A DNA stretch of 63,994 nucleotides, filler included, from Collodictyon triciliatum (lineage: Eukaryota), in assembly GCA_043381765.1 (NCBI GenBank). It is 8 parts of 8 records of this genome, joined end to end, with 100 filler letters (N's around TTAATTAATTAA, not from the genome) between each part and the next. Parts side by side here need not be neighbours in the genome. Positions count along the whole stretch, not along the records: positions 53,814 to 62,324 come from JBHJMP010003397.1; 7 more parts are not named here. One strand, written 5' to 3'. The notes under the pieces were generated by a model. The model saw nothing but the letters and a program-made list of their open reading frames with translations, had not been told where the DNA came from and ran no database searches. The number at the start of each line of letters is the position of its first letter. Within the stretch, counting starts at the first letter, position 1. Positions 8,529 to 63,988 of the stretch are shown in pieces. Both the position numbers and the translations under genes were made by a program.

Positions 8529-8628
8529 NNNNNNNNNNNNNNNNNNNNNNNNNNNNNNNNNNNNNNNNNNNNTTAATTAATTAANNNNNNNNNNNNNNNN
8601 NNNNNNNNNNNNNNNNNNNNNNNNNNNN
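8529..8628. other. Artificial contig linker (N44-TTAATTAATTAA-N44); identical linkers at 19246-19345, 27868-27967, 36486-36585, 45101-45200, 53714-53813, 62325-62424
   Basis: Exactly 100 nt each with a six-frame-stop core; five consecutive contigs between linkers are 8522, 8518, 8515, 8513 and 8511 nt (length-sorted). Confidence 0.98.
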
Positions 8629-16800: not shown

Positions 16801-17422
16801 CTAAATAAATGGAATATGAAGTAATGTCTCATCTCAACCTAAGTGAATGTTTTTTTTTTATTTTTTTAAAAGGGATAAGTTTTTCAAGGTAGAATTAACA
16901 ATATCTGAAATCTATTATTTAAAAATTATTCGAGAATATGAAAATCGAAAATGAATCCAATTAGTTGATAAAAAATGACGAAGTTATCAAAATAATTAAG
17001 GTCTACAGTTTCACATCTTGAAAGGTTGGGGCATTTGAAACGTGACTTTTTTGGGATTAAGTCGTTTCCCTGTTCCTCATCTCCGCCTATAAATATAGGC
17101 ATCAGAAATTTTAATTTAATGTAGCAACAAAACACTCAAAAAAAAAAAAAAAAAAAAAAAANNNNNNNNNNNNNNNNNNNNNNNNNNNNNNNNNNNNNNN
17201 NNNNNNNNNNNNNNNNNNNNNNNNNNNNNNNNNNNNNNNNNNNNNNNNNNNNNNNNNNNNNNNNNNNNNNNNNNNNNNNNNNNNNNNNNNNNNNNNNNNN
17301 NNNNNNNNNNNNNNNNNNNNNNNNNNNNNNNNNNNNNNNNNNNNNNNNNNNNNNNNNNNNNNNNNNNNNNNNNNNNNNNNNNNNNNNNNNNNNNNNNNNN
17401 NNNNNNNNNNNNNNNNNNNNTT

Positions 17423-19245: not shown

Positions 19246-20133
19246 NNNNNNNNNNNNNNNNNNNNNNNNNNNNNNNNNNNNNNNNNNNNTTAATTAATTA
19301 ANNNNNNNNNNNNNNNNNNNNNNNNNNNNNNNNNNNNNNNNNNNNTGTCTTTTTTCTTTTGTCTTTTGTCTTTTGTCTTTTGTCTTTTGTCTTTTGTCTT
19401 TTGTCTTTTGTCTTTTGTCTTATTTTCTATTTTTTTTTTCATTTCTTTTCATCTCATCTTATTGTCTGTTATCATGTTATTTTTTGCTCCTTGGGAAGTT
19501 CCATAAATTAAATACGCTTTCCCTGCCATACCATCACCTGATTTCGAAAGAAACCCATGAATAGTTTTCATGCCACGAAGAAATCTATCAAGTTGGGAGC
19601 ATTTGCAGCACTTAATGGAATATGAGAATAGCTACCCATTTCCGACAAGTAGTTTTTACGCAGCCTTGGTCAGCACTCTTCTTTTTTTTTTTTTTGCATT
19701 GTTATTTTTATTCACATTTTATTTAATTTTTTAATACTTAAAATTGGTAAATATTTTCTACATCTTCATCCATCCGACGAAGCAGCCTTCATACCCTGCT
19801 TCACAAGTAAAATCCAATGCAGCAGAGTCAAATGGTATTGTCTAGCTTTTCTTTTCGTTTTATTCTCTGTGTTGCTCTACACATTCCTCTTTTTCTCAAT
19901 GATTACCATTTATTTATGGCGTGCTCCCTTTCGATTCCCTATCCTATATTTCATTTGTTCCCTCTTTTTTCTGCTTCATATGTTTTAATGAAAGAATTTA
20001 TTTCGCGGTACGATGCGGCAATAAACCCATAGCCAATGGAGAAAAGGTTCCCATAAGGTGAGGAATGCGTGTTTATATATCTCTGGCTCAAGATCGGCTA
20101 ATATCCTCATATCTAATCCTACCCGCCAGAGGC

Positions 20134-27864: not shown

Positions 27865-27967
27865 TTTNNNNNNNNNNNNNNNNNNNNNNNNNNNNNNNNN
27901 NNNNNNNNNNNTTAATTAATTAANNNNNNNNNNNNNNNNNNNNNNNNNNNNNNNNNNNNNNNNNNNN

Positions 27968-28066
<99 letters not shown>

Positions 28067-28139: not shown

Positions 28140-36335
<8,196 letters not shown>

Positions 36336-36585
36336 TTAAAGATCGGTCGAGCCTCATATTTGAAATATGCATCCCCAGTTAGAAGGTCTTTTTTCTCTTT
36401 TTTCTCTTTTTTCTCTTTTTTCTCTTTTTTCTCTTTTTTCTCTTTTTTCTCTTTTTTCTCTTTTTTCTCTTTTTTTCTCTTTTTTNNNNNNNNNNNNNNN
36501 NNNNNNNNNNNNNNNNNNNNNNNNNNNNNTTAATTAATTAANNNNNNNNNNNNNNNNNNNNNNNNNNNNNNNNNNNNNNNNNNNN

Positions 36586-37738: not shown

Positions 37739-40636
37739 TTAGACGGCGACAAAGTAGACAGCACCGCGGTTTTCGCCACCCACGCTATCATACGGAGCGC
37801 CCACAGTGATACCGTCGTCGTTTGTAGCCACGCTGATTCCGAACGAGTCTGCCCCATTTTGCACTCCGAAGCTGTACTTTTTCTGCTCCCAACTGCCTCC
37901 AACATTCTGGAACACATAAACAGACGTCGGCGCTGCAAAACAAGGTAAGGCAACATTGTAAGACTCCACGTGACATTAAATAAAAAAAAAAATTCATGCA
38001 AAGGACCGAAAGACAAGGCGCCTATGCGAACAAACGTCGAAGAATGGGGAAAGGAAAATGTTGAAATCAGAAGGGAAAAAAGAAGAGGCAGTAAAATAGT
38101 AAAATGCCATGCTCAAAATTAGATGTATCGGGTGGTATAATTCACTCACCATTTCCGGTGCAGTAGGCGCAGCCATAGTATGGCGATGACCCGACAACGA
38201 GATATTGTTTCTTTGAATTGTATGCTACGGACGCTCCAAAGTATCCAGTCGGGTCTCCGTCATATGGTGAGATGCGACTGGCTTCGTAGAATTGGTTCTC
38301 TGCGTCCAGCAAGTAATGGGAGACAGTCCCAGAGGTCGGTGGGTAAGACAAGTCATACGACGTGGCGAATAGACTGGTTCCTTCGAATACCAATCCGTAG
38401 CCCAGCAGCGAATAGCCGCTCAACTCTGCGGTGATGGTCTGGGTGAGCACGGCTGAGGTAATACCCTTGTGTGAGTAGACATAGAGCCGTCCATACGAAG
38501 AGCCGGTGGACACAACGATAATTCGGTTACTCGTGGCTACAGTTGACCCGAAGCCGATGCCGTCCTCGCTGGTAGGGCATGCGATTTCAAGGCTGCGGGG
38601 TCCATTTGTCTTGTCCATCGACCTTGGATAGTGGAAAACATACACGCGTCCTTTGTACTGGGATTCACCCACATTAGCGAACGGAGAGGATATGACGGTG
38701 AAGTTGCCGTCCATGGCAAGGCTCTGTCCAAAGTACTGGTACGCTTGGCCCAAGGGAGACGACACCGAAAACTTACGCACGTATCTCCCATGGCTTGGTG
38801 AGTAGCGGAATCCGTAAACGGTAGACTCTTCAATCCCAGAAGTGGAGCCGTAGAGAGCCTGCGATGTCACCAGAACCCATCCATTCTTGACAAGGACGGT
38901 TGTTCCAAAGCGAGAGTAGGCAACACGCCCCAGGTACTGGAAGTATTGCACGAGGCGCCATTCATCAGAGGAGGAGTCCACCAAGTAGACTTTCCCACAG
39001 GGCTTGTCGTATTGGCTCTTTTCAGAACAGGCTGGCTGTGCAATAGCTACGATGGTGCCCTCAGCTGAGACAGAGGACCCTAGATTGTTTGACTTTCCAT
39101 ATATGTTATGGTAGAAGCGACCGTTGCTGGGGAGAGCTGTGTATTGATGTCAAGTTAGTCGTGCACGATTAGTGGCTAATATTAACTGAATTCAACATGT
39201 CTATGTGAAAGTGGTCAACATTATTAAAAAAAAAAAGTACATATATATTAGGCTGGGAGCATGGCTTGCATGCATCACAAATAGGGTGGCATTTAGTCGC
39301 TATAACTTCTTTTCTTTTTCTTTTTTTTGGCCATTATGAGAGGCATTCAATTACCTTGGTTTGCAGCAAAAGTGAACACAGCTCCTGCAGGATAGCCCTG
39401 GTCGTAAGGTGCTCCATCCGAAATGAAGACTTCGTTCCCACGAATATAGACATTGTTTCCAAACGTACCATCTGGTCTGGCCTCGCTTGGTGCCGCTATC
39501 TTGTAAGGTGCAGACCACTCACTATCAGACAGTTTGAATATGACTGCAGTTTGGGTGCTTGAATCACCAGCAACAAGATAGGATCCCGAGAACGCAAGAT
39601 TGGAACCAAGTGAGAGTGTCGATGGGGCGGTCAGAATATTGCTTTGACTCCAGCCATACGAGTAGGTGTATGAGAATATGAAAATGGACGACAGACCAGG
39701 GCAGCCCAAGGCGATAGTGTTGTCAGATGCGATGGCGGCAGAATAACCCAAATAGGTATAGTCCACAGGGTTATTGGCACCCAACCTGAATAGGCTATAC
39801 TGGTTGATATCATTGCCGCTCCTTGGCCATACATAAGCCGCGCCTTGTCCATTCGCTTCGCCGTGGGAACCAGCTAAAACCCAAGCAGATCCGATGTCTA
39901 GGGAATTGCGATAGTATAGATACGAATATGTTCCGTAAAGTGTAGTATAATAGGAGTAATATCCGTTGGTCCAATACCCATCAGTCCAGTAACCATCCAC
40001 CCAATAACCCTCCACCCAACCCCAGTACGACCAATAGCCATTCACCCAGTATCCATCAGTCCAGAATCCATCAACCCAGTATCCTTCATTCCAGGTATAT
40101 GCCACGAGAGAACCCGATGGGTTGAAGGTTCCAGCCAACAGAAGATCTCCATCTATGGCAAGGTTTCCTCCGAGATATGTGTTCCAACTACTCCCAGAGA
40201 AGCTATTCGCGTAGACCCAGGTGTTATTTTGCAAAACAAAAACGTAGACTGTACCATACTGGCTATTGTCCAACGGAGCCCCAACCATCAGGCGGTCATC
40301 AGCAACAGCCACGGCCGACCCAAAGTAAACGTACGAATTGCGGTTGGGTGAGGTCAGTTTGGAATGATAAGACCATTGGGTATTGTTGCGTGAGAAGACA
40401 GAGACTGATCCAGCGTCGGTTATCCATCCATCGATATCATCATATGATGAGCCGATAGCCAGAAATGCCCCATTAGGAGACATGGAAATACTGCCGCCGA
40501 ATTCTGAGTTGTAGCCAACACCCGAGTCAGGAACAATCTTGTTAAGGTACTGAACAGATTGCCCCAAGGTGGAGAGAGGACTGGTGATAAAGATCACGAT
40601 CACGATGGCAGCAAAGGCTGCAAGTTTAACTCGCAT
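37739..40636 (-). CDS. Secreted FG-GAP repeat (integrin-alpha-like beta-propeller) protein, about two propellers, 3 exons
   Basis: Signal peptide MRVKLAAFAAIVIVIFITSPLSTLG; repeats FGGSISMS...LAIGS...GSVSVF, YFGSAVAV...MVGAPLD...GTVYVF, YFGQSLAMDG...GRVYVF, SFGISVA...TVGAPYD...GAVYF; no TM segment seen. Confidence 0.88.
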
Positions 40637-42035
40637 GGCTTTACCTACTAGACTTTCCTGCGGGTTAAAAGGGTTACTTTTTTAGATTCTGTGTGGTGTT
40701 GATTTCGTACCTTATAAGAATAGAGCAAGTGGCAAGATCATTTGACAGTAGTCGCGCTGGTGATGCTTTGTTGTTTTTCTTCCTTTTCATCTCTATTTCT
40801 TCTTTTTTTTCTTCTTTTCTTTTTCTTCTTTTTCTTCTTTTTCTTCTTTTTCTTCTTTTTCTTCTTTTTCTTCTTTTTCTTCTTTTTCTTCTTTTCCTTC
40901 TTTTCCTTCTTTTCCTTCTTTCCTCTTTTTCTTCTTTTTCTTCTTTCCTCTTTTTCTTCTTTTTCTTCTTTTCTTTTTTTTCTTTTTCTTCTTTTCTTCT
41001 TTTTCTTCTTTTTCTTCTTTTCCTTCTTTTCCTTCTTTCCTCTTTTCTTTTTTTCTTTGCTGCCGTGGAATGCTGATTCATCTTGTGTTTGTCTCCTCTG
41101 TGCGCCTGATGGAGCCCGCCGTGGAAAAGAGGTGTCCAGTCAATAACGGGAAGTGGCGGTCGCTATTTGTAGCACAAGAGAAAGCCCGTTGGTTGCTTAA
41201 TGCGTCCGTTGGATGCCAAATGCGTATTTGAATAATTCCACACTTATTGTGGAAAGTAAAATAATGAAGTCCATTGACATTGTATAAAGGTATTTGTCCT
41301 AATCACTTATAGGATTATGATAGATATATGCGGGATAAACATTGTATAGGTATTGTAAGAGTTGGACACCTAATTCATTGTAAGCAGACAAATATCCCGA
41401 ATGTGGAGCAACTATGTCGGGTAAGTGCCTGGTAGATTAGGGCGCGTCTCCACCGATGAATCATGGCTGACGAAAGAAAGAGCTTTGACGAATCCAAGAA
41501 ACAACCTGAGTAATATAATGGTACGATTGGTATATATAGTAAGGTTAAAAATACTTAAAAATTTCATTCTATTCCTATAATCAATTTACATTTTATTTTC
41601 CATTATGTAACATTATCATTAATATTAAAATTCAAAGATTACGAACAAGCCCTTACCTTTGCCAGACAGAAACCACGCTATAAACCTTCCGCCAAGCATC
41701 CATTTCAAAAAAGCGTACTATCCACACTTGCGGCGGTAATCATGTTGTTTGGGGCCGATGTGTTGACTTTCAGTCGCAATGGCTATACGGCCGTCCTTTC
41801 GAACTCGCCGAATCGGCTCTCAGCGTTTTGTCTCAAATCACTTGCATAAATAACTTTGTGTGCTTATTTGCCACAAGCACACATTTTGAAAGTCCTGGTA
41901 GATGCTTGATTTTACACGAATGGATTTTAAGCAGTTGTATTTATTAAATTATTAAATTGACTTATAGACTTAAGTTTTATTAAAATTGAAAACTCGGTAG
42001 TTTTCTAAAGGAAAAAGTAAAACAAAGCCTTTCAG

Positions 42036-44925: not shown

Positions 44926-45200
44926 GTGAGGACCACTAGTTGGTAGCCTATATATTAACATTTACATTCACATTCACACGGGCCATGATTATGTCTATGT
45001 CTATGTCTATGTCTATGTCTATGTCTATGTCTATGTCTATGTCTATGTCTATGTCTATGTCTATGTCTATGTCTATGTCTATGTCTATGTCTATGTCTAT
45101 NNNNNNNNNNNNNNNNNNNNNNNNNNNNNNNNNNNNNNNNNNNNTTAATTAATTAANNNNNNNNNNNNNNNNNNNNNNNNNNNNNNNNNNNNNNNNNNNN

Positions 45201-46335: not shown

Positions 46336-49300
46336 CTAGGCCGAGTTTTGAGAGTCCGGTTCATCACACGAAAAAGATGGAGATTGAGTTGAATTGTAAA
46401 GGCGTGATAAATGAATATGTTCTGTCGGAGATGGATTTGAAGAGTTGTCACCAACAACGATTTGCAGTGGCTCAAAGTTCTGGCTATTCAAGTTGTGTAA
46501 AAGCGAAGCGCCGGATAGATTTTCCGAGAGATTTTGCTCACGAACGACGATAACATTTCTTTTAATTCTCCTCATATAGAGCAGGAATGCTAGTGAAATG
46601 AGCGTGACAGCAGATACGCAAACGATTCCTCCGATAATTATTGCCCAAAGACCGCTAGAAACATCATTTTCGTCTCTTTGATTTGTCATATGCAACGTTT
46701 TGGACCGAATGTGAGGTTCGCTATTAAAATTATTTGATTGTACTCTAGAATGAAGCTTTGTGTTTGGTTTGCTCCTTGATTGGTACCTAGATACTGACCT
46801 ATATGATGTGGTAGAAATAGAACTTTCGTTATTGGATTTAATATGGACTTTTTTCTCTAAAATGCTGGCAAAAGTTGATATCAAGTAGCATTTACAAACA
46901 ACTCTTTCTTCATCATAGCTCAACAACTGACACCCATCTTTGCTCCAGAGTTGACTCGTAAAATTGTAATTTATGCAAGCAGGCGCGTAACGATCAAAAT
47001 CCAAGCTATTTGGACTGGAAATAGAAAGTGATACATATACTGGGCTTTTCATTCTGTTTGGTGTCATATTGCTTGCAATAAACTCAGATAATTCTAGAAA
47101 TACTTCTAAAATGGCAGAACTGATGTTTGGATGAAAGGTGTAGGAATTGAACAGAGTGTTCGACACGTGAATGACTGGGTTGCTAAGGTTGGTGTACACT
47201 TCCCGACTCAAGATGATTCCAGGATTTCCATCAGCTGGAGCTACAACCAGATGGGGTTCATTATCGGGGCACTGTTTATAAGAAGCTACTTGAAGCAGTT
47301 TTGATGAAGCCAAGTACCCAATATCTCCACAAAGCTGGAAATTTATATTTGATATAGCAATCAACTTTGCTGATTTTTTAGCTTTGTGTAGGATATTCTT
47401 TGGGTCTGCAAATCCTACTTGATACCGTTTAGGTAGTCTCAGAGCTGAGTTGAAGATATTTGTGAAGGCATGAAGCAAAGAAGTTCCCGTATTCTCTAGA
47501 ACAGAAGTAGCAGTTGCTGCTTCTGTATAATATATAAATTAATGAAATTATGTTATCTTAATTACAAAATTTTGCAAGTTGAGTTAAAGGTGAAAAAATG
47601 ACAAAAAAAACATGTTACCCGCTAAAATCGTGAGATAATCAGTGGCATTGGAAATCAATGTTTGATTCATGCAAGAGTCTCCTAGAATGGCTGAGAATAG
47701 TTGTATATTCGAATCAGTTTGGGTTGATGAGTAGAATTGCTGCTTGGAATTAGTTGTTTTCATTAAGAAGAAAGCTTTGAATCTGGTGCTTGAGGCCAAA
47801 ATTTGGGCCAATGTGCAAGGACTCTGTTGATTCCTTTTAAAAAAAGTCTGATTCCTTTCAGATAACATCGAATTTATAATGTCCATGCAGCTTGCGCAGT
47901 ATTGAGTAACTATGTCATAATTTCCTTGCTCAAAAGCACTATTCATCTGTTCGGTCACGATGGAATCGGCAGAAGAGGCTCTTTCCGAGTCATCAAGAAA
48001 CTTCAGAGAGGTGACATTTACCAATTTTTCTAACCTTACGAAGTTGCCGTTTACATCAGATATGTATATAACTCCTTTGAGTAATGTCATTCCTGGTGCA
48101 GCACCACTCATTTTTCCTTCGGGCATTATGATTGTCCGTATAGAAGAAGGTGCGTATGGTGAGACAATTTGGTCGAATCCGTCATCCGTGAGCACATAAC
48201 CGAATGCGTATGACAAAGGATAATTGAAATCGAACGTTTGCCATCCTTTGGCTTCGAAAGTAAATGGAGACAATTGTTCACCGCCATTCGAAGGACACTC
48301 AAACGTCCCACCGAATGGTAGTATATTTGTTTTAAATGATATCTCGGACATACCATTGATATTTCTATAAGTGTCTGTGGCTATGAGGGTTATTTTGTAT
48401 AAGGTGTTGTCTTTCAGCCTGTATGGGGGTATTGAAATCCTGGGATTCTTCAAGTCTGCTAAATTTATCCCCAAATCCAAAAATGAAGAAGTTCCACCGC
48501 TGATCTTCCAGGAATAGCTCAAAACATTGTTTGTTGCGTAGGCTGCATATCCAGATATTCTCAAGGTGGATGAAACAGACGGATACTCCTGCTCCAGAGG
48601 TAAGATATTGACAACTGGAGGGTCTTGCTGGACGACGACTATAATTTTTGAAGCAAAAGCTGGAACATATGCACCACTTGATTTAGATAAAATAAGTTCA
48701 AACAAATAAGTACCTGGATTCAAGGTAGGAATATCTCCACTTTGTCTTATTTTGATAACACTTGTGTCTGGAAAAATGATTTGGGTGTTGTTTGTGGCAT
48801 ATAAACATGGGAGCATCGAAGTCATGTTTCTACAAGACCATTGATATTTCATGGATAGATAATCCTGTATTTGTACTTCAGGGTCGAATGATATAGAGGC
48901 GTCTACTTCAAAATCCTTGACACATCCGGCAACACCTGCTGTGCCTCCAACTATAAGGGCTCTTAGTCCACCAGACAAGCCTTCAATCATAACTTCAGCA
49001 AAATTACAAGCTTCTCCACCTTCGCGTAAAGGTATGCAGCCAGTCAGTCTGAAGTTGTATTTTTTAAATGGAGCCAAGGAAAAAGGTGTCAATGTCAGCG
49101 TATTTGTGTTTTTTAAGACAGGGTTTAACCTAATTGCATCTCCTGATGTTTGTTCCCACAAGAAATTTATTGAAGAGCCATTGAGACACTTTGGAATTAA
49201 TCCTATTCCTTTTAAAGTTGTATATTTGGATGGAAGTGCATACTGTAATCGCGAACCACCAATTGTGATTGTCGGAAAGGCATCGCTCAACTTCTGAACC

Positions 49301-52300
49301 ACTATACTACCTGATGTTGACAATCCAAAAGGTGTTTTAATGGTCAATGTAAAGTTATAAGTAAATCCTGGGGTAAGTTCATCATTCATATAGAGAAACT
49401 CTCGTGATTTACGAATAGCCAACATCGTAATATTCATGAAATGATCTGGAAGTGGTGGAGATGAAGTAAAATTCCACTTGTAATCAATATTGAGACATTT
49501 GTTATTTATTAATTTTGTCGGTGATGAATCCAAATACAAGGGAGAGCACCTGCTAATCCTTTGAGGACCTGATATACTTACTACTATTGAGACTAGCGAA
49601 ACTGGCATCTGGGTCACGTAGGAGCCTGAACTGGTTGGGAACCAGAAACACCCGTACTTGACGCGAATCTTGTTTCTTTTCAAGGTAATATTCATTCCTA
49701 TAGTTACTAATGGAGAACATGCTGTTTCAAGCACTAACTTTTTGTCTGTTTCCCATTTACAACGGAATGTCTCCATACCCACTAGAAGCTCACTGCAATC
49801 AAAATCCGAGGTAAAGCCTCCCATATCAGTTGATTTGTCGAAAATGATTATTATTTGATGGCCATACTCACCGAAAATAGCGGATATCACGCTTGGTGCT
49901 TCTATGTATGTCTTATTTTCGATTCCAAAGGTTAGAAAGGCCTTCGGAATATCTCCTTGGCCTCTGTAATAATCTACTTTTCTTTCAAGGGCGGATTTTC
50001 CTTCACTATCGTAGGTTATAATGGAAAAAGAAATGCCTATAGACTTCTCAAAACTCTGTGCTTGCAACTGACAACTAAATTCATGTCCTACCAGCATCGG
50101 TCTGACACGAAACCCGTATTCATAATCCAGAGTTCGTGCTCCTAGTATCACTTTCATATCCTTATTTTTTTTCGTAACTATGTCTATATAAACATCGAGC
50201 TTCGATGTTGAATTCATTCCGAAGATGTCTTTTGGTGCAATTTTGAATTGAGGGATACAATCATATCCTGGAATAAAAGAAAAGGACGTGTCAATGAATC
50301 TCCATTTTCTTGAGAGGACACGCAGCAAAAAGATAGCATCTGCAACACCTATTTTTCCATCTTCATTTGCATCTAGCCATTTCATTTGATAATTCTCCAG
50401 AGGATGTTTTATTAAATTAGCTATGTACATCACAGCAAATTGTACGTCAGAAATCGAGAACTCACAATCTCCGTTCGTGTTTCCTCTTATTGATTCTGGA
50501 GCACATGATGACTTTTTTGGCTCTACTGATGATAAGTTGTTGATTAAATTTGATGTATTTTGATCGTGCTTCAAATATGATCTTTGGTATCCTATTTGAA
50601 GGAATCCAGAGCCCGCTACTATTTCGCGAGATTTCAATGCAGTGGGGTATGCTCCTATCGGATTTGATTCCAAACCCGACTCCACCAAACTGTTCACCCG
50701 ACCAGTAATCAACACTTGGCCGTTCTTAAGAGCTTTAAATCGAATCTGCGCAATGTTAAGTCTTTTTCCATAAACGTGTGAGCCCACTGCAGTTACTCCA
50801 ACTATCTTGATTTTACCTGCAGGGTCATTCAAAGTTATCTCTATTTGTCCACCTGGCCAGTCCTTTCCAACTTGAGAACTGATAGCGCTTAAATAGTTTG
50901 CATCGAAAATTATATCAATATCAAAAGCCCCAAGAATTTGACTCCCAGTATTAATATAAATTGGTATGTCATGTTCTGAGTTTGGTTCCATTTTATCGTA
51001 TTGAAGACCATCTGGGTTTCCAATATCGATATCTCCGACATCTGGCTCCAGGTTTGAGTATACTTGAAAATATTGGGCTATTATATTACATGCAGAAACT
51101 TTAAATGAAAAAGAGTAAGGGCTGTTTCCTTGCACTATGACCGCTCTTGATTTTAAGTCGACATATGCACTGGAAGGATGGGATGATTCAAACGAAAGAA
51201 ATCCTTCTAAGTCATTTGCTTTTTTGTAAACAGTTTGGTCTTCAAATACAGCAGTCACATCGAACTGTGGGATTGCATACCCTTTCACTCCTTTGAATGT
51301 GAGTGGTACGTTTGCGCTTATATTTTTGACAGATATGTAGTCTGATAAGACGGACAACATAAATTTTTCTGACTTTTTAGAAGCAAACCTTCCAATGATT
51401 GCCACTGTACCCGCATTATTAGAGTTTGGTCTGACAATATTACCATCTATAGCAATAATGTCACTTCCCTCTCCTTCATCAAGCTCATAGGTGACGAAAT
51501 TTGCTGTTGATGATATTTCTGTAACTCTTCCACTAGAAATTTGCATAAAAAGTCTAAGAATAGCCTTTTGATATGTTGAAGTACAGTGTATTCTCCTAAG
51601 AGAATTAATTGATTTCAAATCAGAGGATGGATATGTAGGATACGGATTTGCATCAATAAATAATTTTTTGTGTGATACAACTTCAACAATCAGTTCAACT
51701 GATGGTAACCCAGGGTGAGCAGGTATACTGATGATAATTGTTGCATTTCCGATGCTCGATTCGATAGCCTTAACAGCAACTGAATTTTCTTCATGAGTGT
51801 CATTTTCAACTATCATGACTAAGTTGATTGAATTAGGGTGTATTCTGTAGAAAACCTGATGGTTCATGGAGTAGTCTATTTCTTGGCCATTTTCGAAAAT
51901 AGCCTTTATGAAAATTGGCAAGGATGTGGGTATGCCAATAAGAGATGATACGTCTGACTCACTTGTCAGTAAATATCCATTCTTTGTGTATGCTCTTATA
52001 CTTGAAATTTTTGGTAGTTTCAAGTTTAATAGCGCATGTCCCGATTTTATTTCCACTCCACAAGTCTTCCAAGATGCACGGATATGGTACCCACAAGATG
52101 ATTCCCTGGCTATTACACACGAACCATTCTTCAAGACCTCTATTGATGAATCCAACGACACGATATCTAAACCTGCCTCTTGATTGATTTCCATTTTTCT
52201 GCCGTCAGAGAACAATGCATATGCAACCACGTATCCAACCTGGTTGACGTTGGTAAAATTTTGGAAGACACTGGCAATAGCCGCTCCAATTTCGTTTGAT

Positions 52301-53713
52301 TTATATCCTTCAATTTCTTTGTCTATTTGGGATATAGTTATATTCGTAAAAACTGCTGCTTCAATATCTTTAACATGGACATAATCGGAAGAGACGGTTA
52401 ACACTACCACATTTGAATTTATCAATTTTGCCGAAATTTTAGTGTCTCCGGGTGACTGGCCCTGAATTTCATATCCAGATACAAAAGCAACACTTTCTTC
52501 GGATGATATAATGGGCACATGGGGTGTTACATCAACTGATACTATATCAGTATCACTTTTTAATCTTGCCTGTATTCGATATGCCGTCTTTTGATATATC
52601 TCTTGTCTACATGAAGCATTTAAAGTTCCATTTATAGCGAAAAGCTTACTAGTATCTAGAATCAATTGAACGGGCCGCAACGGAATCCAAATTCTAATTG
52701 TCGTCTTATAGTCCTTTATTCTAATGATCAAATAACCTCCAATAGTTTCTCTTCCGGTTAGTATTAAAGTACAACCAGCTACCGAAGACATAGTTGTGTC
52801 ACTAATCATACATGCGGCGGACGATGAAATATCAACTTTTCCTCTGATTCCCCAAATTTCGTACACAAAAATGGGTATGTTAATTTTAATCCCATTCATA
52901 ACGGCTGTATTCAATACTTCTGACACACTCGGTGTCAAATAGTAACCGCGGATGGAATCATATAATATTGCAACAGTACCAGGGTCTTTTGAACCTTCTG
53001 AATCACGAACAATACCATCTATTTCGAACGGGAGTATAGAGACAGCTTGAATGTCAGACATTTCGGGTATGGTGAAGGATATAGCTGCTAAGTTTCTAGT
53101 GATATCTAAATTTTCGTCTATTTCCCATGTCATCAATAAAGCGTCTTTGATAGCACCTCTTGTCTTGCTAACATTACATGACTCATACTTCAAACCAACC
53201 ACGGAAACAGGTTGTTCGTTAAGGTTTGCGGTAACTGAGTACTTTTCCCCACCATGTATATTTTTTATTCTAATTATTTGGGAATCAAAGTATATATTTA
53301 ACTTAAAGCCCTGTAAAATTGTTTCTCCTGTAATGGCGTCAATAGTTGCCGAAAAAGTGCTGCCATGCGTTACCGGTGAAGTTGGTAAGTTCATTATCAT
53401 TCCGATTTTCTGCTCTGAAAAAGAATTGGGTATCTTCTTTGCTCTTATCTTTTCTAATTCGATCAAATATCCGTCGATGGAGAGAATAGGTGTCAGGTAA
53501 TTGTCTGATGCGGTTGAAAAAAAGTAATCAAGATTCCTGAGGGTGAGAAGACATGTGTTTACACCATCGCTTATGCAAGAATCGGAAACTGTTGGAAATT
53601 CTTTGAAATAGGCCAATATGCGCCCTCCGCTGGTAATTGTTTCTCCTTTTGGTCCGACAAGCCATGCGTGTATTTTCACGGGATTTTCTCCTTTGTAAAT
53701 ATCTGAAGAGGAC
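46336..53713 (-). CDS. Giant single-pass surface protein: TMEM132-like cohesin+Ig region, cohesin, dockerin, REJ module, GAIN/GPS, TM helix, short tail; 5'-truncated, one intron (47523-47618)
   Basis: 2031-aa ORF spliced in phase to the 380-aa ORF. TMEM132-like IWIPLRPVQLILD...YQKT...VDVTP...ALFSDG; cohesin IPIYINTGSQILGAFDIDIIFD...LNIAQIRFKA; dockerin GNTNGDCEFSISD...LDANEDGKIGVADAIFLLRVL; REJ VDASISFDPE...YQWSC, PFGGTFEC...GWQ...PLSYAF; GPS CINYN...WSKDGC...CKCYLISTFA; TM GLWAIIIGGIVCVSAVTLISLAFLLYM followed by RRIKR. Confidence 0.85.
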
Positions 53714-54053
53714 NNNNNNNNNNNNNNNNNNNNNNNNNNNNNNNNNNNNNNNNNNNNTTAATTAATTAANNNNNNNNNNNNNNNNNNNNNNNNNNNNNNN
53801 NNNNNNNNNNNNNTCTCTTTCTCTTTCTCTTTCTCTTTCTCTTTCTCTTTCTCTTTCTCTTTCTCTTTCTCTTTCTCTTTCTCTTTCTCTTTCTCTTTCT
53901 CCTTCTCTTTCTGCTGAGAACAACTTTGTAATTTTTTTCTTGTCTCTGCCACGTGTCAAAATTTAATTATCAAACCTAATATGATGTCGTACTCTATTCC
54001 TTGTCAATAATGATGATAATAATACCTAATTAAAGAACAAGAGAAAAAGAGAC

Positions 54054-56577: not shown

Positions 56578-57390
56578 AAATGTTAATTAATAATTATTCT
56601 ACTTTGAATCGACTAAAGGAAAATAATAATGTAAACCTTCCATTAATTTCCGCTCAAATAAGAGTTTTTACTTTATATACGGGTGGCTCTAACAATCCAT
56701 CCCTTTTGAACACATTTTCGCACAACTTCCTAGAAAACTATCACGGAAAAGAGGGGTAGTTTGCGCCCAGCTGCAGAAAATGGTGATTTATCACTACCAT
56801 CTTTGCCACCATCCTCTTTGCCATTATCACCATTATTTTGATTAATCAAATCTTCAAGTATCTTTTTGCTCATGAAAGCTCAAACTGACCAATACTAGAT
56901 ATGGATGGGCGTGCGACCCTGAAGTTCGCAACTTGGGCAGAGAAGAAGCTTGCTGAATATGAAAGAATAGCAAATTGACCCCATTTTTTGTCTTGTGATG
57001 CCGATTTATACTTCGTGTTAAGTGTAAATCGGCATCATCTTGTTTCTCTTTTTCTCTCTTTCTCTCTTTTTTCTATGTTTTTACATCGGAAAAGAAAACG
57101 ATGCAACCTTCCCATCGAACAATTATTATTCTATAAAATTTTAAAAAAAAATATTGATATTTGTAATAAACTGAAATTAGGCTCGATTTTGGTGGTTCAT
57201 CCCTTATTTCTTTTCTTCTTTATTCTTCTCTTCACTTCTCTTTTTTCTTTTTCTTTTTCTTTTCTTTTCTTTTCTTTTCTTTTCTTTTCTTTTCTTTTCT
57301 TTTCTTTTCTTTTCTTTTCTTTTCTTTTCTTTTCTTTTCTTTTCTTTTATTCGGCGCGAGACTGCAGCGCAGAGAGCCAGAGCAAGAGTC

Positions 57391-60365
57391 CTATTTGGGC
57401 AGATTGGCCGGGACGTAGACGCACCCGAATCTCGAGACTGTGGCCGGCGAAGCCTTTTGGAAGTTCTCCGCTTCGACAAAGATCTTGACGTTTGCGGGGA
57501 CATCGATGCGGTCGCCGTTCATCAAGCACAAGACGCGGTTGTCATCCAACACAGTGTTGAGATATTCGGCCCACTCGTAGTGGCAGACACCGTCAAAGAC
57601 GAGCCACTTTAAACCGCTGCGGTCGGAAGCATTAAAGCGTCGAAGTGTGGACGGCACAATCCCGTCCTTCCAGGTGCTGTCAGACGGGTCAAATGACCCA
57701 AACAACTCTCCAAGACTCACCGACATCGGGTCCACGCTGAACGCATCCACTGGCGCCGCTCCTTTCACAATGACGCCTTTCCCGTGCAGGAGATTATAGG
57801 CAGCTTCAAGCACGCGGTAGCAGCTGGTTTTCCCACTGCCAGAGGGCCCCACCAACGCAACACCGTGGCGGGTTTGAATCGCAGAATGCACTTGCAAGAC
57901 TTTAGTCACAAACTCTGGCGAGGCTTTTAGATTCATCTGCCCCAAAACTTCGTGAACAGCATCGGTCAACGCGGCGATGTCTGAATCCTGGGGAATTGTG
58001 ACTCCTGCAAAGAGTTGCTGAAACAGAGATTCATACGCTTCGGCACCGTCCTCGGTGATTCTCGGGCGGTTTACGGAATCAAACGCCTTTGCCAAAATTA
58101 CTTCTTCGGGTTGGTCAGGCATGTCCTTTCGGAGCTTCTCAGCTAGAGTCACCACAGATTTGAAGCTTCTCATCCCGAAGTCGTAATGGTCCTTTCTGGA
58201 GAATTGCAGCAATGCGGTGCGCGCTTGCCCCATTTTCTGACCAAGCATCTTGCCCTCTTCGAACCCGCACAAGTGGAGCATTCCCTCAGTTAGGACGGAC
58301 ATTTCAGGAATGGAAACGGAGTGCGCTATTATAAGCTCCTTCATAACGGTCTTTGGGTCAGACTCTGGCTTGAAGCCCGGATTCATGGTAGCAAAGGTCC
58401 CAGTGAAAGGGTGGATTGTGATGAGCTTGCCCATAAAAGTCGTGGACTTGGAGCCAGCTTCTGATGCAGCTTTAATTGTTCCAATTTGCTTTGTCAACTC
58501 GATGGTGGTAAATTCGGTGATTCTGTTGAGCTCATCAAAATTTATCCAAGTTCCGCTCTGGATGGCTCCTTTAAGATAATGACCAAGCATAATATGGTCC
58601 ACTCCTTCGCTCATATTGATGGTGATGAGAGAACGACCGCAAAATCGCGCAAAATCTTTTATGGTCTCATTCTTCCCAGAACCAGCGGGGCCAGACAATA
58701 ACCCAATGGTGTGTGTATGGACAGCTTTGGAAAGAAGTTCTTGATAGGAATGTGTCGCTTGTTGTTTCACAAGGCTCGGTTCAGAACCAAGGAATTCATA
58801 TCCGTACGGGAGGGTCACATCGCCAGACCTAACTTGGACTCTTTCGTGTTCAGAATCCCAAACGTATCGCGTGCATTTGGCCCAGTATGACTGAGCAGTG
58901 CTGATAGACTCATGGTTATGCATTTCAGAGATGGTGTCCATTAAAAAGGACAATGAAATAATCGCAGAAGACAAAATGTTCTTTTGGGCGATTGTCCAAG
59001 TCTGTCTCGCCAGTCGAATAAGCCCCACATGAAGTTGTCGGTACTTTTTGAGCAGTTCTTGTAATGATTCCTTGGGGTTAGAGCTTTGGAGAGAAGTATC
59101 AACTTGCGCACTCCAGTCCAGCTCTGCAACAACAAGAGAGACTTGGCCAATGTATTTGAAAATCCACTCGTTGAGCTCGGATTCTTGGTAGCCTTGCTTT
59201 GCCTTGAGTATGAGCTCATGGATTGATTCAATCTGTGCATTCATGATTTGTTGGAAGAACTCGCTGAGCTTGTGGTTGTACTTGACAGGTGTCTTGAACT
59301 TTAGCTCATCTCCATGGACAGAGACCATGGAAAGGATATCATTTGTACCCTCGCTGAATCCGAAATGGCTGAGGTTCTCAAAAACTCTTGCACCAAGGGA
59401 AGAGATAGACCCGCGCTCATCACGGGTTCCGATCATATGTATGAGTTCATCATTACTGACAAAAAAGAACCTGGGGAAATCGCCTCGAATGGCTGAAAGG
59501 TAGTCCATGGTCTCATCAACAATCGTCTGCATGGTGGCAACATGCTTTTCCAGAAGGGTGGTGACTGCAGCGTCTTCAATAATCTACTTCCAGGATTTTT
59601 TATTTGGAATTATTTGTATGCTGTTTCCACTTAGTGACAGTATCTGTTTTCTGAAAAAAAAATTTTCGAGATAACACTATTAAAAAAAAAAACATGAAGA
59701 CTGGATGAGAAATAAGGAAGGACCTTAGGTAATGATTTCTTCTCTTTTAACGCCTCGAAAGTAGCGGCTATCTCCGAGGCAATCATGTTGTATCTTTCAA
59801 ATAGACTTGGGAGGTCCTGTTGCAACAGCTTGTGCTTGTAAAAAGTGACAACACCATTCAAGTTTGTTTGGAGCGAAGCGCAATGCCCCAGGACCGCCAA
59901 AAGTTTGACGAGCTCGTTTTTAATTCCCACTGCTTCCTATATATAATTGAAATATGAAAGAGTGACTTTAGACTGTGCCAGCACTGAGAGAAAAAAGTGA
60001 AATATAATAGAAGACACCTGTGAATTCTCGGATGTCGGGGGATTTAGAAGAAAAAAAAAAGAAGGGAAAGGAAGGAAGTTCACTGTGGCGTGAGGAGCAT
60101 CTGGAGCGGCAGAGAGGGACGAAAGGGTGCTGATGTCGGACTCAGCTCGCTCGGACGTATCTTCGAGAGAGGCGATGACTTGGATTGGGAGATCTCTGGC
60201 TTGTGTCAGCTCCAGAACCCAGCTTTTCCAGAAGCTGTCAATCTGCCAAAGGAAGAAAAAAGCAGGCGAAGGGCGTCAACTTATCGCAGGAAGACGGGGC
60301 GTAAAGGAGAAGGGTAGAACCTCTTCGAAAGTGGCCGGCTTAGTGGAGGTGGGGCTTGCGGACAT
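57391..60365 (-). CDS. Truncated dynein-heavy-chain-like protein (~869 aa): DHC linker + AAA1 + AAA2 only; exons 60365-60321, 60242-60084, 59936-59724, 59583-57391
   Basis: FPRFFFVSNDEL, YGYEFLG, GPAGSGKNETIKD, WINFDELNRI, FATMNPG, HYDFGMRSFKSV, RHGVALVGPSGSGKT, ELFG...WKDG, WLVFDG, LNTVLDDNRVLCL, ASPATVSR then TAG. GCCATG start, three in-phase GT-AG introns, AATAAA ~40 nt after the stop. Confidence 0.88.
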
Positions 60366-61017
60366 GGCTGTTTGTTTCCTTGGTGGAGGGTTCTGTGTTG
60401 TAGGGGATGGTGAAATTGTCTTCAAGTGACAGTCTGCGACGTCCGGGTTTGTGCGTCCATGTAGTGGGAGTTGTCTTTGCGGCTCGATATTGAGCTTTTG
60501 GTTGCGTTGCGTAATGCCATAACGGCTTCTGCCAGTTTGTTTTTATATGAGCCCCATACTACAAATGTGGATGTTATTTGATGATGTCAATAACTAAATA
60601 AGGCATGATTTCAAAAAAACATGGATGACTAAATATAGAAGTCAAAAGGTTTAATAAATATTATTATTGATATACATTATATATTCTTGCTTTAAAAATT
60701 TATTTTTATGATGTTTTGTGCGCAAATTACCATATATTATAGATTTTATAATAAATTCCATATATATTGTAGAATTATGTAATTATCTGTAATATTATTA
60801 ATCATAATATTTTTAATCATATATTTGTGGCATTAAAGGTACAAATATCAATCAATTAAAGTATTATGATGTATTCCAGATATACTGACCCATTCAGTTC
60901 CTGATTTGTGTGCCTTTTGTGCAACTCTGCTGTTCGGATGCAAATAAAAAAAAAAACAAAACAAAGCAGTCGAAAAACGCAATGCCCGCGCTGTTTGTGC
61001 TGGGCTGAGGAATCGTC

Positions 61018-62324: not shown

Positions 62325-62445
62325 NNNNNNNNNNNNNNNNNNNNNNNNNNNNNNNNNNNNNNNNNNNNTTAATTAATTAANNNNNNNNNNNNNNNNNNNN
62401 NNNNNNNNNNNNNNNNNNNNNNNNTATTTATTTATTTATTTATTT

Positions 62446-63550: not shown

Positions 63551-63988
<438 letters not shown>

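Follow-up and report, generated by a model that had tools for sequence, protein, structure and literature searches.

The window analysed here, a 63,994-nt stretch of DNA from Collodictyon triciliatum (assembly GCA_043381765.1), carries between positions 60365 and 57391 a dynein-derived gene on its minus strand, the strand on which all features of the gene given below lie. Sequence reading and a scripted gene model give a coding sequence (CDS) of 2610 nt in four exons with 869 codons. Exon 1 (60321..60365) supplies 15 codons without recognisable dynein homology, exon 2 (60084..60242) 53 codons with a weak collinear match to the linker family DHC_N2, exon 3 (59724..59936) 71 codons of a degenerate linker segment, and exon 4 (57391..59583) 730 codons followed by a TAG stop at 57393-57391. 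The introns between them are all of the GT..AG type and measure 78 nt (60243..60320), 147 nt (59937..60083) and 140 nt (59584..59723), the first two supported by RNA contigs and the model, the third by RNA contigs. The ATG at 60365, in the context aaacaaacagccATG, is the first ATG in the visible mRNA, and the 27-nt 5′ untranslated region (UTR; 60366..60392) holds no upstream ATG. At the other end the protein finishes with ...ATVSRFGCVYVPANLPK, then TAG.

Contigs from four public runs were compared with positions 57340-61000 of the window: X1 and X2, which belong to one study under two organism labels, X3, a freshwater metagenome, and X4, a freshwater metatranscriptome from another study. All three introns are skipped by contigs of two cDNA-type runs (X1 record 4, 1,173 nt; X2 record 11), and two of the three splice joints match the gene model exactly, the joint of exons 1 and 2 (60242/60321) being present in both X1 and X2. 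The read comparison placed the intron 2 joint at 59933/60083 with two letters between, a placement that we ascribe to a strain difference at 59934, and intron 2 is thus read as 59937-60083. We take X1 and X2 to be cDNA because the introns are spliced out and because several of their internal loose ends bear one constant sequence, which is presumably the complement of a template-switching cDNA oligo. The X1 and X2 contigs span 60394 to 57340, through the stop codon, with no joint beyond the three internal ones, and X4 adds four contigs (774 nt in total) that are identical to the window, one of them crossing the stop codon, an identity to be read with possible carry-over of DNA in that library in mind. 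The 3′ UTR lies under RNA contigs from 57340 to 57390 (X1 record 1, X2 record 6, X4 record 19), an extent that is a minimum, since 57340 is the edge of the stretch compared, and contains an AATAAA hexamer at 57351-57346, 40 nt past the stop. Depth derived from contigs cannot rank the parts of the gene, and we draw nothing from it; parts left uncovered in X3 and X4 likewise carry no meaning. This is a separate, spliced and expressed gene for a dynein-derived protein. The preliminary description of the locus had proposed a self-contained four-exon transcription unit with GT-AG introns, an open frame of ~869 codons and a downstream AATAAA, all of which agree with the model and with the spliced contigs, now on the minus strand; its TAG immediately behind ASPATVSR has to be moved, the actual stop lying 12 codons farther on than ATVSR.

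Two further observations concern the transcribed region and its surroundings. One X2 contig (59556-59656) spans the boundary of exon 4 and intron 3 at a depth of 6.2, compared with 8.68 for the spliced contig, which points to intron retention or an unspliced precursor. Directly downstream of the gene stands a (TTTTC)18 microsatellite (57255..57344, no strand assigned), and a reading in which TAG serves as a sense codon was rejected, as the frame would run into a (GAAAA)n repeat without dynein homology. A Pfam search of the open reading frames (ORFs) flanking the gene matched no family, so that the convergent and divergent neighbours named in the preliminary description are putative genes.

At the 5′ end, contigs of both X1 and X2 match the genome only as far as 60394, beyond which they share one non-genomic leader of 20-23 nt, whose plus-strand consensus is CTTTGATTAGGTAGTGTTAGCTA. 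The loose ends of the contigs mark the AG dinucleotide at 60393..60394, preceded by a pyrimidine-rich tract, as a candidate acceptor for trans-splicing or for cis-splicing from a distance. The leader has no match in the 64-kb window at up to three mismatches and appears in no paper of the literature searched, and Rfam returned no family in the window. The gene's 5′ end thus has what marks a spliced leader, namely a leader not encoded at the locus and joined at an AG acceptor, and the leader may be such a sequence or a distant 5′ exon, both of which it resembles.

What the gene encodes is a portion of a dynein heavy chain. A Pfam search of the 730-aa last exon, the kind of profile scan that the preliminary description had proposed, matched only DHC_N2, in part, AAA_6 and AAA_5. 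A linker segment (59203..59559) matches DHC_N2 at E 7.7e-18 over profile positions 285-402 of 403 only; the AAA1 module (57826..58806) matches AAA_6 over the whole profile, 1-327 of 327, at E 2.9e-73; and the large subdomain of AAA2 (57427..57861; residues 575-719 of the last exon) matches AAA_5 at E 2e-11. With a score of 247.1 bits against a gathering cut-off of 25.2 and the full model covered, the AAA1 module belongs to the AAA_6 family (PF12774). Identity to dyneins is no more than 11-15% in exons 1-3, and the match of exon 2 to DHC_N2 (profile 152-198, E 0.21) is by itself not significant; because it is collinear, we place the start of the protein at about position 150 of DHC_N2. On the far side, Pfam reported no Dynein_AAA_lid on the last exon, and 73 aligned full-length dyneins continue for a median of 339 residues past the end of the query within the excised stretch. 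The protein therefore retains some two-thirds of the linker, both subdomains of AAA1, large and small, and the large subdomain of AAA2 (AAA2L), so that the earlier summary of the gene as linker, AAA1 and AAA2 holds for AAA1, whereas the linker is incomplete and AAA2 is represented by its large (alpha/beta) subdomain alone.

The remainder of a heavy chain is not found nearby. When seven full-length or long dyneins were searched against the window with tblastn, only this locus was recovered, every other match having E >= 0.23, and profile hidden Markov models (HMMs) of the 367 following and 211 preceding canonical positions, searched against a six-frame translation of the window in 2,525 pieces, returned nothing but the last exon of the gene itself (E 1e-06, from its paralogous P-loop), the next best hits standing at E 1.5 and 0.39. 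Across Pfam, tblastn and profile HMMs there is thus no coiled-coil stalk with a microtubule-binding domain in the window; nor does the window hold six AAA+ modules in one chain, the AAA_7, AAA_8, AAA_9 and Dynein_heavy parts being absent from it, or an N-terminal tail (DHC_N1) with a complete linker, DHC_N1 being absent and DHC_N2 partial. Lacking the parts for microtubule binding, for a one-chain ring of six modules and for tail attachment, the protein is no motor. On both counts, that the product is not a conventional motor and that the missing domains do not lie close by, the preliminary description was right, and the loss is larger than it had described: with the tail, AAA3-6 and the stalk, even the AAA2 lid is gone.

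Its sequence suggests a single-headed inner-arm (axonemal) dynein heavy chain as the ancestor of the gene. The best matches among solved structures are dyneins of this type, 8glv_Fm of Chlamydomonas (2.6e-120), DNAH7 (2e-118) and DNAH1 (1.3e-116), with outer-arm and cytoplasmic dyneins scoring lower (cytoplasmic dynein 1 at about 1e-80). A FastTree of the AAA1-AAA2L region (113 sequences, 473 columns, rooted on cytoplasmic dynein, 112 of 113 chosen relatives having passed the length filter) places the gene inside the DNAH1/3/12 clade with support of 0.919, and this clade nests in a wider single-headed clade that includes DNAH6 (support 0.998). The gene's own terminal branch is 1.86 substitutions per site long, about 7 times the median of 0.28. 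No close relative turned up in the libraries searched: word-index searches at near and longer lengths gave nothing above 34% identity; among 1.84 billion representatives, searched exhaustively, there were 8,364 matches at E <= 0.001, the best 150 of them at 27-35% identity; a scan of metagenome contigs gave five loci at 28-44% identity on segments; the ESM Atlas yielded dynein fragment clusters alone; and the gene's own protein is absent from the collections searched. Several matches (P0001, P0023, P0039, P0061, P0090 and P0102) end soon after AAA2, as does P0067, a 1,840-aa model from Hammondia that is absent from the tree. We treat all of these as partial gene models rather than as relatives of the same architecture, because many lie on short contigs; those included in the tree group with ordinary dyneins, apart from the query.

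Across the 73 full-length dyneins, 105 columns are near-invariant (>=95% conserved), and the query keeps 72 of them, where the poorest of the 73 keeps 96. The losses are uneven, with 8/13 such positions kept in the linker part of the last exon, 28/46 in the large and 11/16 in the small subdomain of AAA1, and 23/26 in AAA2L. AAA1 is, in the median, 31% and at most 36% identical to dyneins, compared with a lowest value of 38% and a median of 52% among canonical pairs (300 pairs sampled from the 73); for AAA2L the identity is 38%, where the canonical median is 45%. The conserved motifs of the linker are largely lost. The AAA1 Walker A motif (58669..58692) reads GPAGSGKN where the consensus is GPAGTGKT; the Thr replaced by this T444N change is present in at least 95% of the 73 dyneins, so the query lacks the Walker A of a motor, and X1 record 2, which spans the motif, shows no alternative letter there. 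In P-loop NTPases the Thr or Ser after the Lys holds Mg2+, Asn at this place weakens triphosphate binding, and changes of Ser or Thr to Asn are the classical nucleotide-binding mutants of small GTPases. Since the Walker A Thr has become Asn, the AAA1 site would be crippled and is probably not a working ATPase. Behind the sensor-1 region of AAA1, four more conserved residues are changed (G545P, R546E, P550K and R558I). Kept are K443, D489, E490, N540, R611 and R857, and with them the Walker A Lys, the Walker B Asp-Glu, the sensor-1 Asn and the arginines of HYDFGMR and ATVSR; the AAA2 Walker A, GPSGSGKT (57826-57849), is intact. D489 and E490 (Walker B), N540 (sensor-1) and R857 presumably have the roles usual for these motifs, and Arg857 (57430..57432), in a conserved column, would be the arginine finger that AAA2 extends into the AAA1 site.

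In the window, as in the X1/X2 haplotype, the frame of 869 codons is open, with none of the stops or indels that would mark a pseudogene. In simulations that placed random substitutions on the CDS (300 copies per level, and conservative in that no indels were introduced), 25/300 copies were still free of stops at 5% amino-acid change and 2/300 at 10%, compared with 0/300 at both 20% and 33%. Because the frame is open, because a third of the near-invariant positions have been lost and because none of the 300 simulated copies survived at the higher levels, most of the divergence would have accumulated while the frame was protected.

We suggest, at what we judge an even chance of being correct, that the gene encodes an expressed non-motor pseudo-ATPase, a dynein derivative under weak constraint. 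Most simply, part of an inner-arm dynein gene would have been copied to a site between unrelated genes, and the copy would then have gained its own start, its own stop and an acceptor for the 5′ leader. Selection would have kept the frame open, as the simulations indicate, while the sequence diverged beyond any working dynein; if selection kept the frame, the truncated or aberrant product must have had some use. That product would be a folded linker-AAA1-AAA2L unit with an intact AAA2 P-loop and AAA2 arginine finger, acting, if at all, by binding nucleotide or a partner and not by producing force, and the gene may by now be drifting towards loss. In favour of the fold, AlphaFold2, given an alignment of 36 sequences, predicts the protein at a mean predicted local distance difference test (pLDDT) of 89.1 and a predicted TM-score (pTM) of 0.85, and in Foldseek comparisons of this model with dynein motor domains the query TM-score is 0.78-0.90.

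Several observations weigh against this reading. Between the window and X1/X2 there are 16 differences in the CDS, 12 of them non-synonymous and 4 synonymous, and the resulting ratio of non-synonymous to synonymous polymorphism (pN/pS) is about 0.87, a value drawn from a small sample and inflated by polymorphism. A ratio of substitution rates (omega) of 0.1-0.2 is rejected (P 5e-05, 0.006) and 0.3 is marginal (P 0.044), whereas 0.5-1 fits the 16 differences (at omega 0.5, P 0.24, n = 16). One of the changes, G433W (window 58704), lies four residues ahead of the AAA1 P-loop and occurs in X2 only, as a synonymous change at 58657 occurs in the X1 contig only; because of these two changes, the gene must exist in at least three haplotypes. 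No orthologue was found in the libraries searched, so that conservation between species is unproven. The confidence of the AlphaFold2 model leans on the ordinary dyneins in its alignment and is no proof of a stable sequence. Support for the gene comes from RNA and sequence and none of it from the protein level; poly(A) is not seen in the RNA contigs, which cannot show RNA ends; and the missing dynein parts were sought in the 64-kb window, so that complementary pieces may exist elsewhere in the genome. Present constraint on the gene looks weak, and the evidence on selection is mixed, the open frame speaking for it and the differences between strains against it. The earlier description of the gene as maintained stands in so far as the frame is open in two haplotypes despite the lost invariant positions, and is called into question by the pN/pS and by the replaced Walker A Thr.

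Over the upstream intergenic region (60653-60977), contigs of the metagenome X3 carry four other letters and three gaps in 151 nt, with loose ends, and in the 372 nt covered by the two X3 contigs that lie within the CDS there are 0 and 1 differences. This hints that the coding part is better conserved than the region upstream; the X3 contigs may come from different strains.

The alternative that survives best, which we regard as somewhat unlikely, is that the gene is a transcribed relic, a young pseudogene or ‘ghost gene’ that is spliced but functionless and whose frame is open only because its inactivation was recent. The 16 differences are compatible with an omega of 1, a Trp is segregating beside a P-loop whose Walker A already reads GKN, conserved linker motifs are lost and no orthologue is known, and a short neutral phase would fit the open frame, given the 25 copies still open at 5% change. 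However, recent inactivation accounts poorly for the depth of the divergence: 33/105 near-invariant positions are lost on a branch ~7 times the median, yet neither haplotype has a stop or frameshift, and the failure of every simulated copy at 20% change or more argues that the divergence arose mostly under selection on the frame. Uniform decay, moreover, would not give the unevenness by which AAA2L retains 23/26 near-invariant positions and the large subdomain of AAA1 28/46. The ends of the gene are also tidy for a relic, with translation beginning at the first AUG, the stop at the boundary between the large and small subdomains of AAA2, compact flanks and, within the window, no remnant of what has been lost.

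Less likely again is a ‘minimal dynein engine’ kept by selection, either as an autonomous switch gated by nucleotide or as one of several polypeptides that together make up a dynein. The protein would then be seen as containing exactly those subdomains that build the main ATP site, together with most of the linker, and in the second case genes elsewhere would encode the remaining pieces, which would become expressible through spliced-leader trans-splicing.

A related possibility, which we consider improbable, is that the gene is a piece of a split dynein, with the tail and the start of the linker, and the AAA2 lid through to the C-terminus, encoded elsewhere and all parts assembling into a motor. 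Precedents exist in Ustilago maydis, other Basidiomycota and Giardia: according to the part of the survey by Kollmar (2016, PMC5100056) that was available, heavy chains are split within AAA4 in Ustilago, before the motor in Agaricomycota and within AAA1 in Wallemia, Giardia also has split chains, and the parts are translated as separate polypeptides. As in the split genes described in that part of the survey (Ustilago maydis Dyn1/Dyn2, Agaricomycota, Wallemia and the outer-arm genes of Giardia and Spironucleus), the transcript here carries a start and a stop of its own, with no joint that bridges to another part, as far as contigs that do not show the RNA ends can tell. The piece also holds every subdomain of the AAA1 site, namely the large and small subdomains of AAA1 and AAA2L with R857, and a leader not encoded at the locus hints at trans-splicing, which would ease the expression of gene pieces. 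However, the known split genes have known complementary genes whose parts sum to a normal dynein, in the same available portion of the survey, whereas no partner of the Collodictyon gene is known and none is seen within the 64-kb window. Its break points, inside the linker and at the large/small boundary of AAA2, differ from the splits recorded there and would require three pieces. A working motor should, furthermore, conserve AAA1, which here is degenerate: at 31% (best 36%) its identity falls under that of the lowest canonical pair, 38%, the Walker A Thr is gone and so are most linker motifs.

The preliminary description had also raised the idea of a homo-oligomeric mini-ring, in which copies would join head to tail, for instance three of them to give six AAA large domains with linkers. 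This we hold to be very improbable. Only the general ring-forming habit of AAA+ modules and the intact AAA2 P-loop and arginine finger would speak for it, and a prediction of self-association for two copies of AAA1-AAA2L (471 residues each) scored 0.00 in a run without controls and is evidence neither way. In dynein the small subdomain is part of each contact between modules, and with AAA2 lacking its small subdomain the modules here are unequal; the conserved R546, P550 and R558 behind the AAA1 sensor-1 region are lost as well. As for an artefact, a mis-assembly or wrong gene model that truncates a normal dynein gene, which the N runs in the window and the microsatellite beside the gene might bring to mind, its chance is close to nil, since independent cDNA contigs follow the window through the junctions, the start, the stop and 51 nt of 3′ UTR, the nearest N runs (53714-53813 and 62325-62424) lie outside the gene and the sequence is too divergent for a piece of an ordinary dynein.

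Dynein heavy chains are, to our knowledge, among the most rigidly built proteins known, and an expressed, intact linker-AAA1-AAA2L gene would be a natural experiment on a piece of dynein smaller than the ring. It could reveal by what route a giant motor gene is taken apart or put to another use and, being small and possibly soluble, would give access to the linker and the AAA1 site; should it prove a relic, it would be a dated snapshot of the decay of a dynein gene in a poorly sampled freshwater protist. Its significance is at present limited by its occurrence in one species, the missing orthologue and the near-neutral polymorphism.

Set beside the single-headed inner-arm dyneins that are its best matches and share its clade (human DNAH7, DNAH1, DNAH3, DNAH12 and DNAH6, and Chlamydomonas chains of 8glv), the mini-dynein has the same predicted fold for the C-terminal part of the linker, AAA1 and AAA2L, and the same Walker B Asp-Glu, sensor-1 Asn, HYDFGxR arginine, AAA2 P-loop and ATVSR arginine. 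It differs from them in length (869 residues, theirs being about 4,000), in sequence (identity about 30%, 72/105 near-invariant positions, GKN and not GKT in Walker A) and in lacking the tail, the first third of the linker, the AAA2 lid, AAA3-6, the stalk with its microtubule-binding domain and the C-terminal domain. Domain organisation is very similar across dynein classes, as stated in the available part of PMC5100056, which also describes aberrant ‘ghost’ or orphan dyneins: DNHD1, orphans in Daphnia and Strongyloides, and fragments in Mastigamoeba. Like these, the mini-dynein evolves fast, resists classification and is confined to one lineage; in contrast to them, as they appear in that portion of the paper, where orphans either have the full domain organisation with alignable tails or are frameshifted fragments and pseudogenes, it is short, intact and expressed. 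Our literature search, at the level of titles and the openings of abstracts, found no natural stand-alone gene for a truncated, partial or fragmentary heavy chain, a result on which the supplements of PMC5100056 on orphans and fragments may bear. The earlier view that no such family has been described is therefore borne out by the lack of any relative above 35% identity in the libraries searched and by a domain content that does not occur in the available part of that paper, but needs tempering, as split and ghost dyneins are already in print there.

Elsewhere in the window, a neighbouring kinase has its best match, at 42% identity, in a transcriptome of Diphylleia rotans. On the minus strand at 46336-53757, a 2,057-aa open frame with REJ and PKD-like domains runs into an N run, and a GPS motif is present in the next minus-strand ORF downstream; the two would make up a receptor of polycystin/REJ type that is almost intronless. 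Two adjacent minus-strand ORFs at 38142-40681 contain FG-GAP repeats, one of them with a W-x-D-G-Y-W run. N runs occupy 8529-8628, 19246-19345, 27868-27967, 36486-36585, 45101-45200, 53714-53813 and 62325-62424, with a further one at 17162-17420, and none falls in the dynein-derived gene. They consist of pairs of 44 N with 12 bases between, and from 19.2 kb onwards the pairs recur about every 8.6 kb, a regularity more suggestive of masking or of a scaffolding convention than of natural gaps. At 25.6 and 61.4 kb there are low-complexity stretches of coding sequence rich in F, L and S, and long perfect microsatellites of (AAT)n/(ATT)n, up to 231 bases, lie at 27968-28063, 30886-30981 and 63555-63984.

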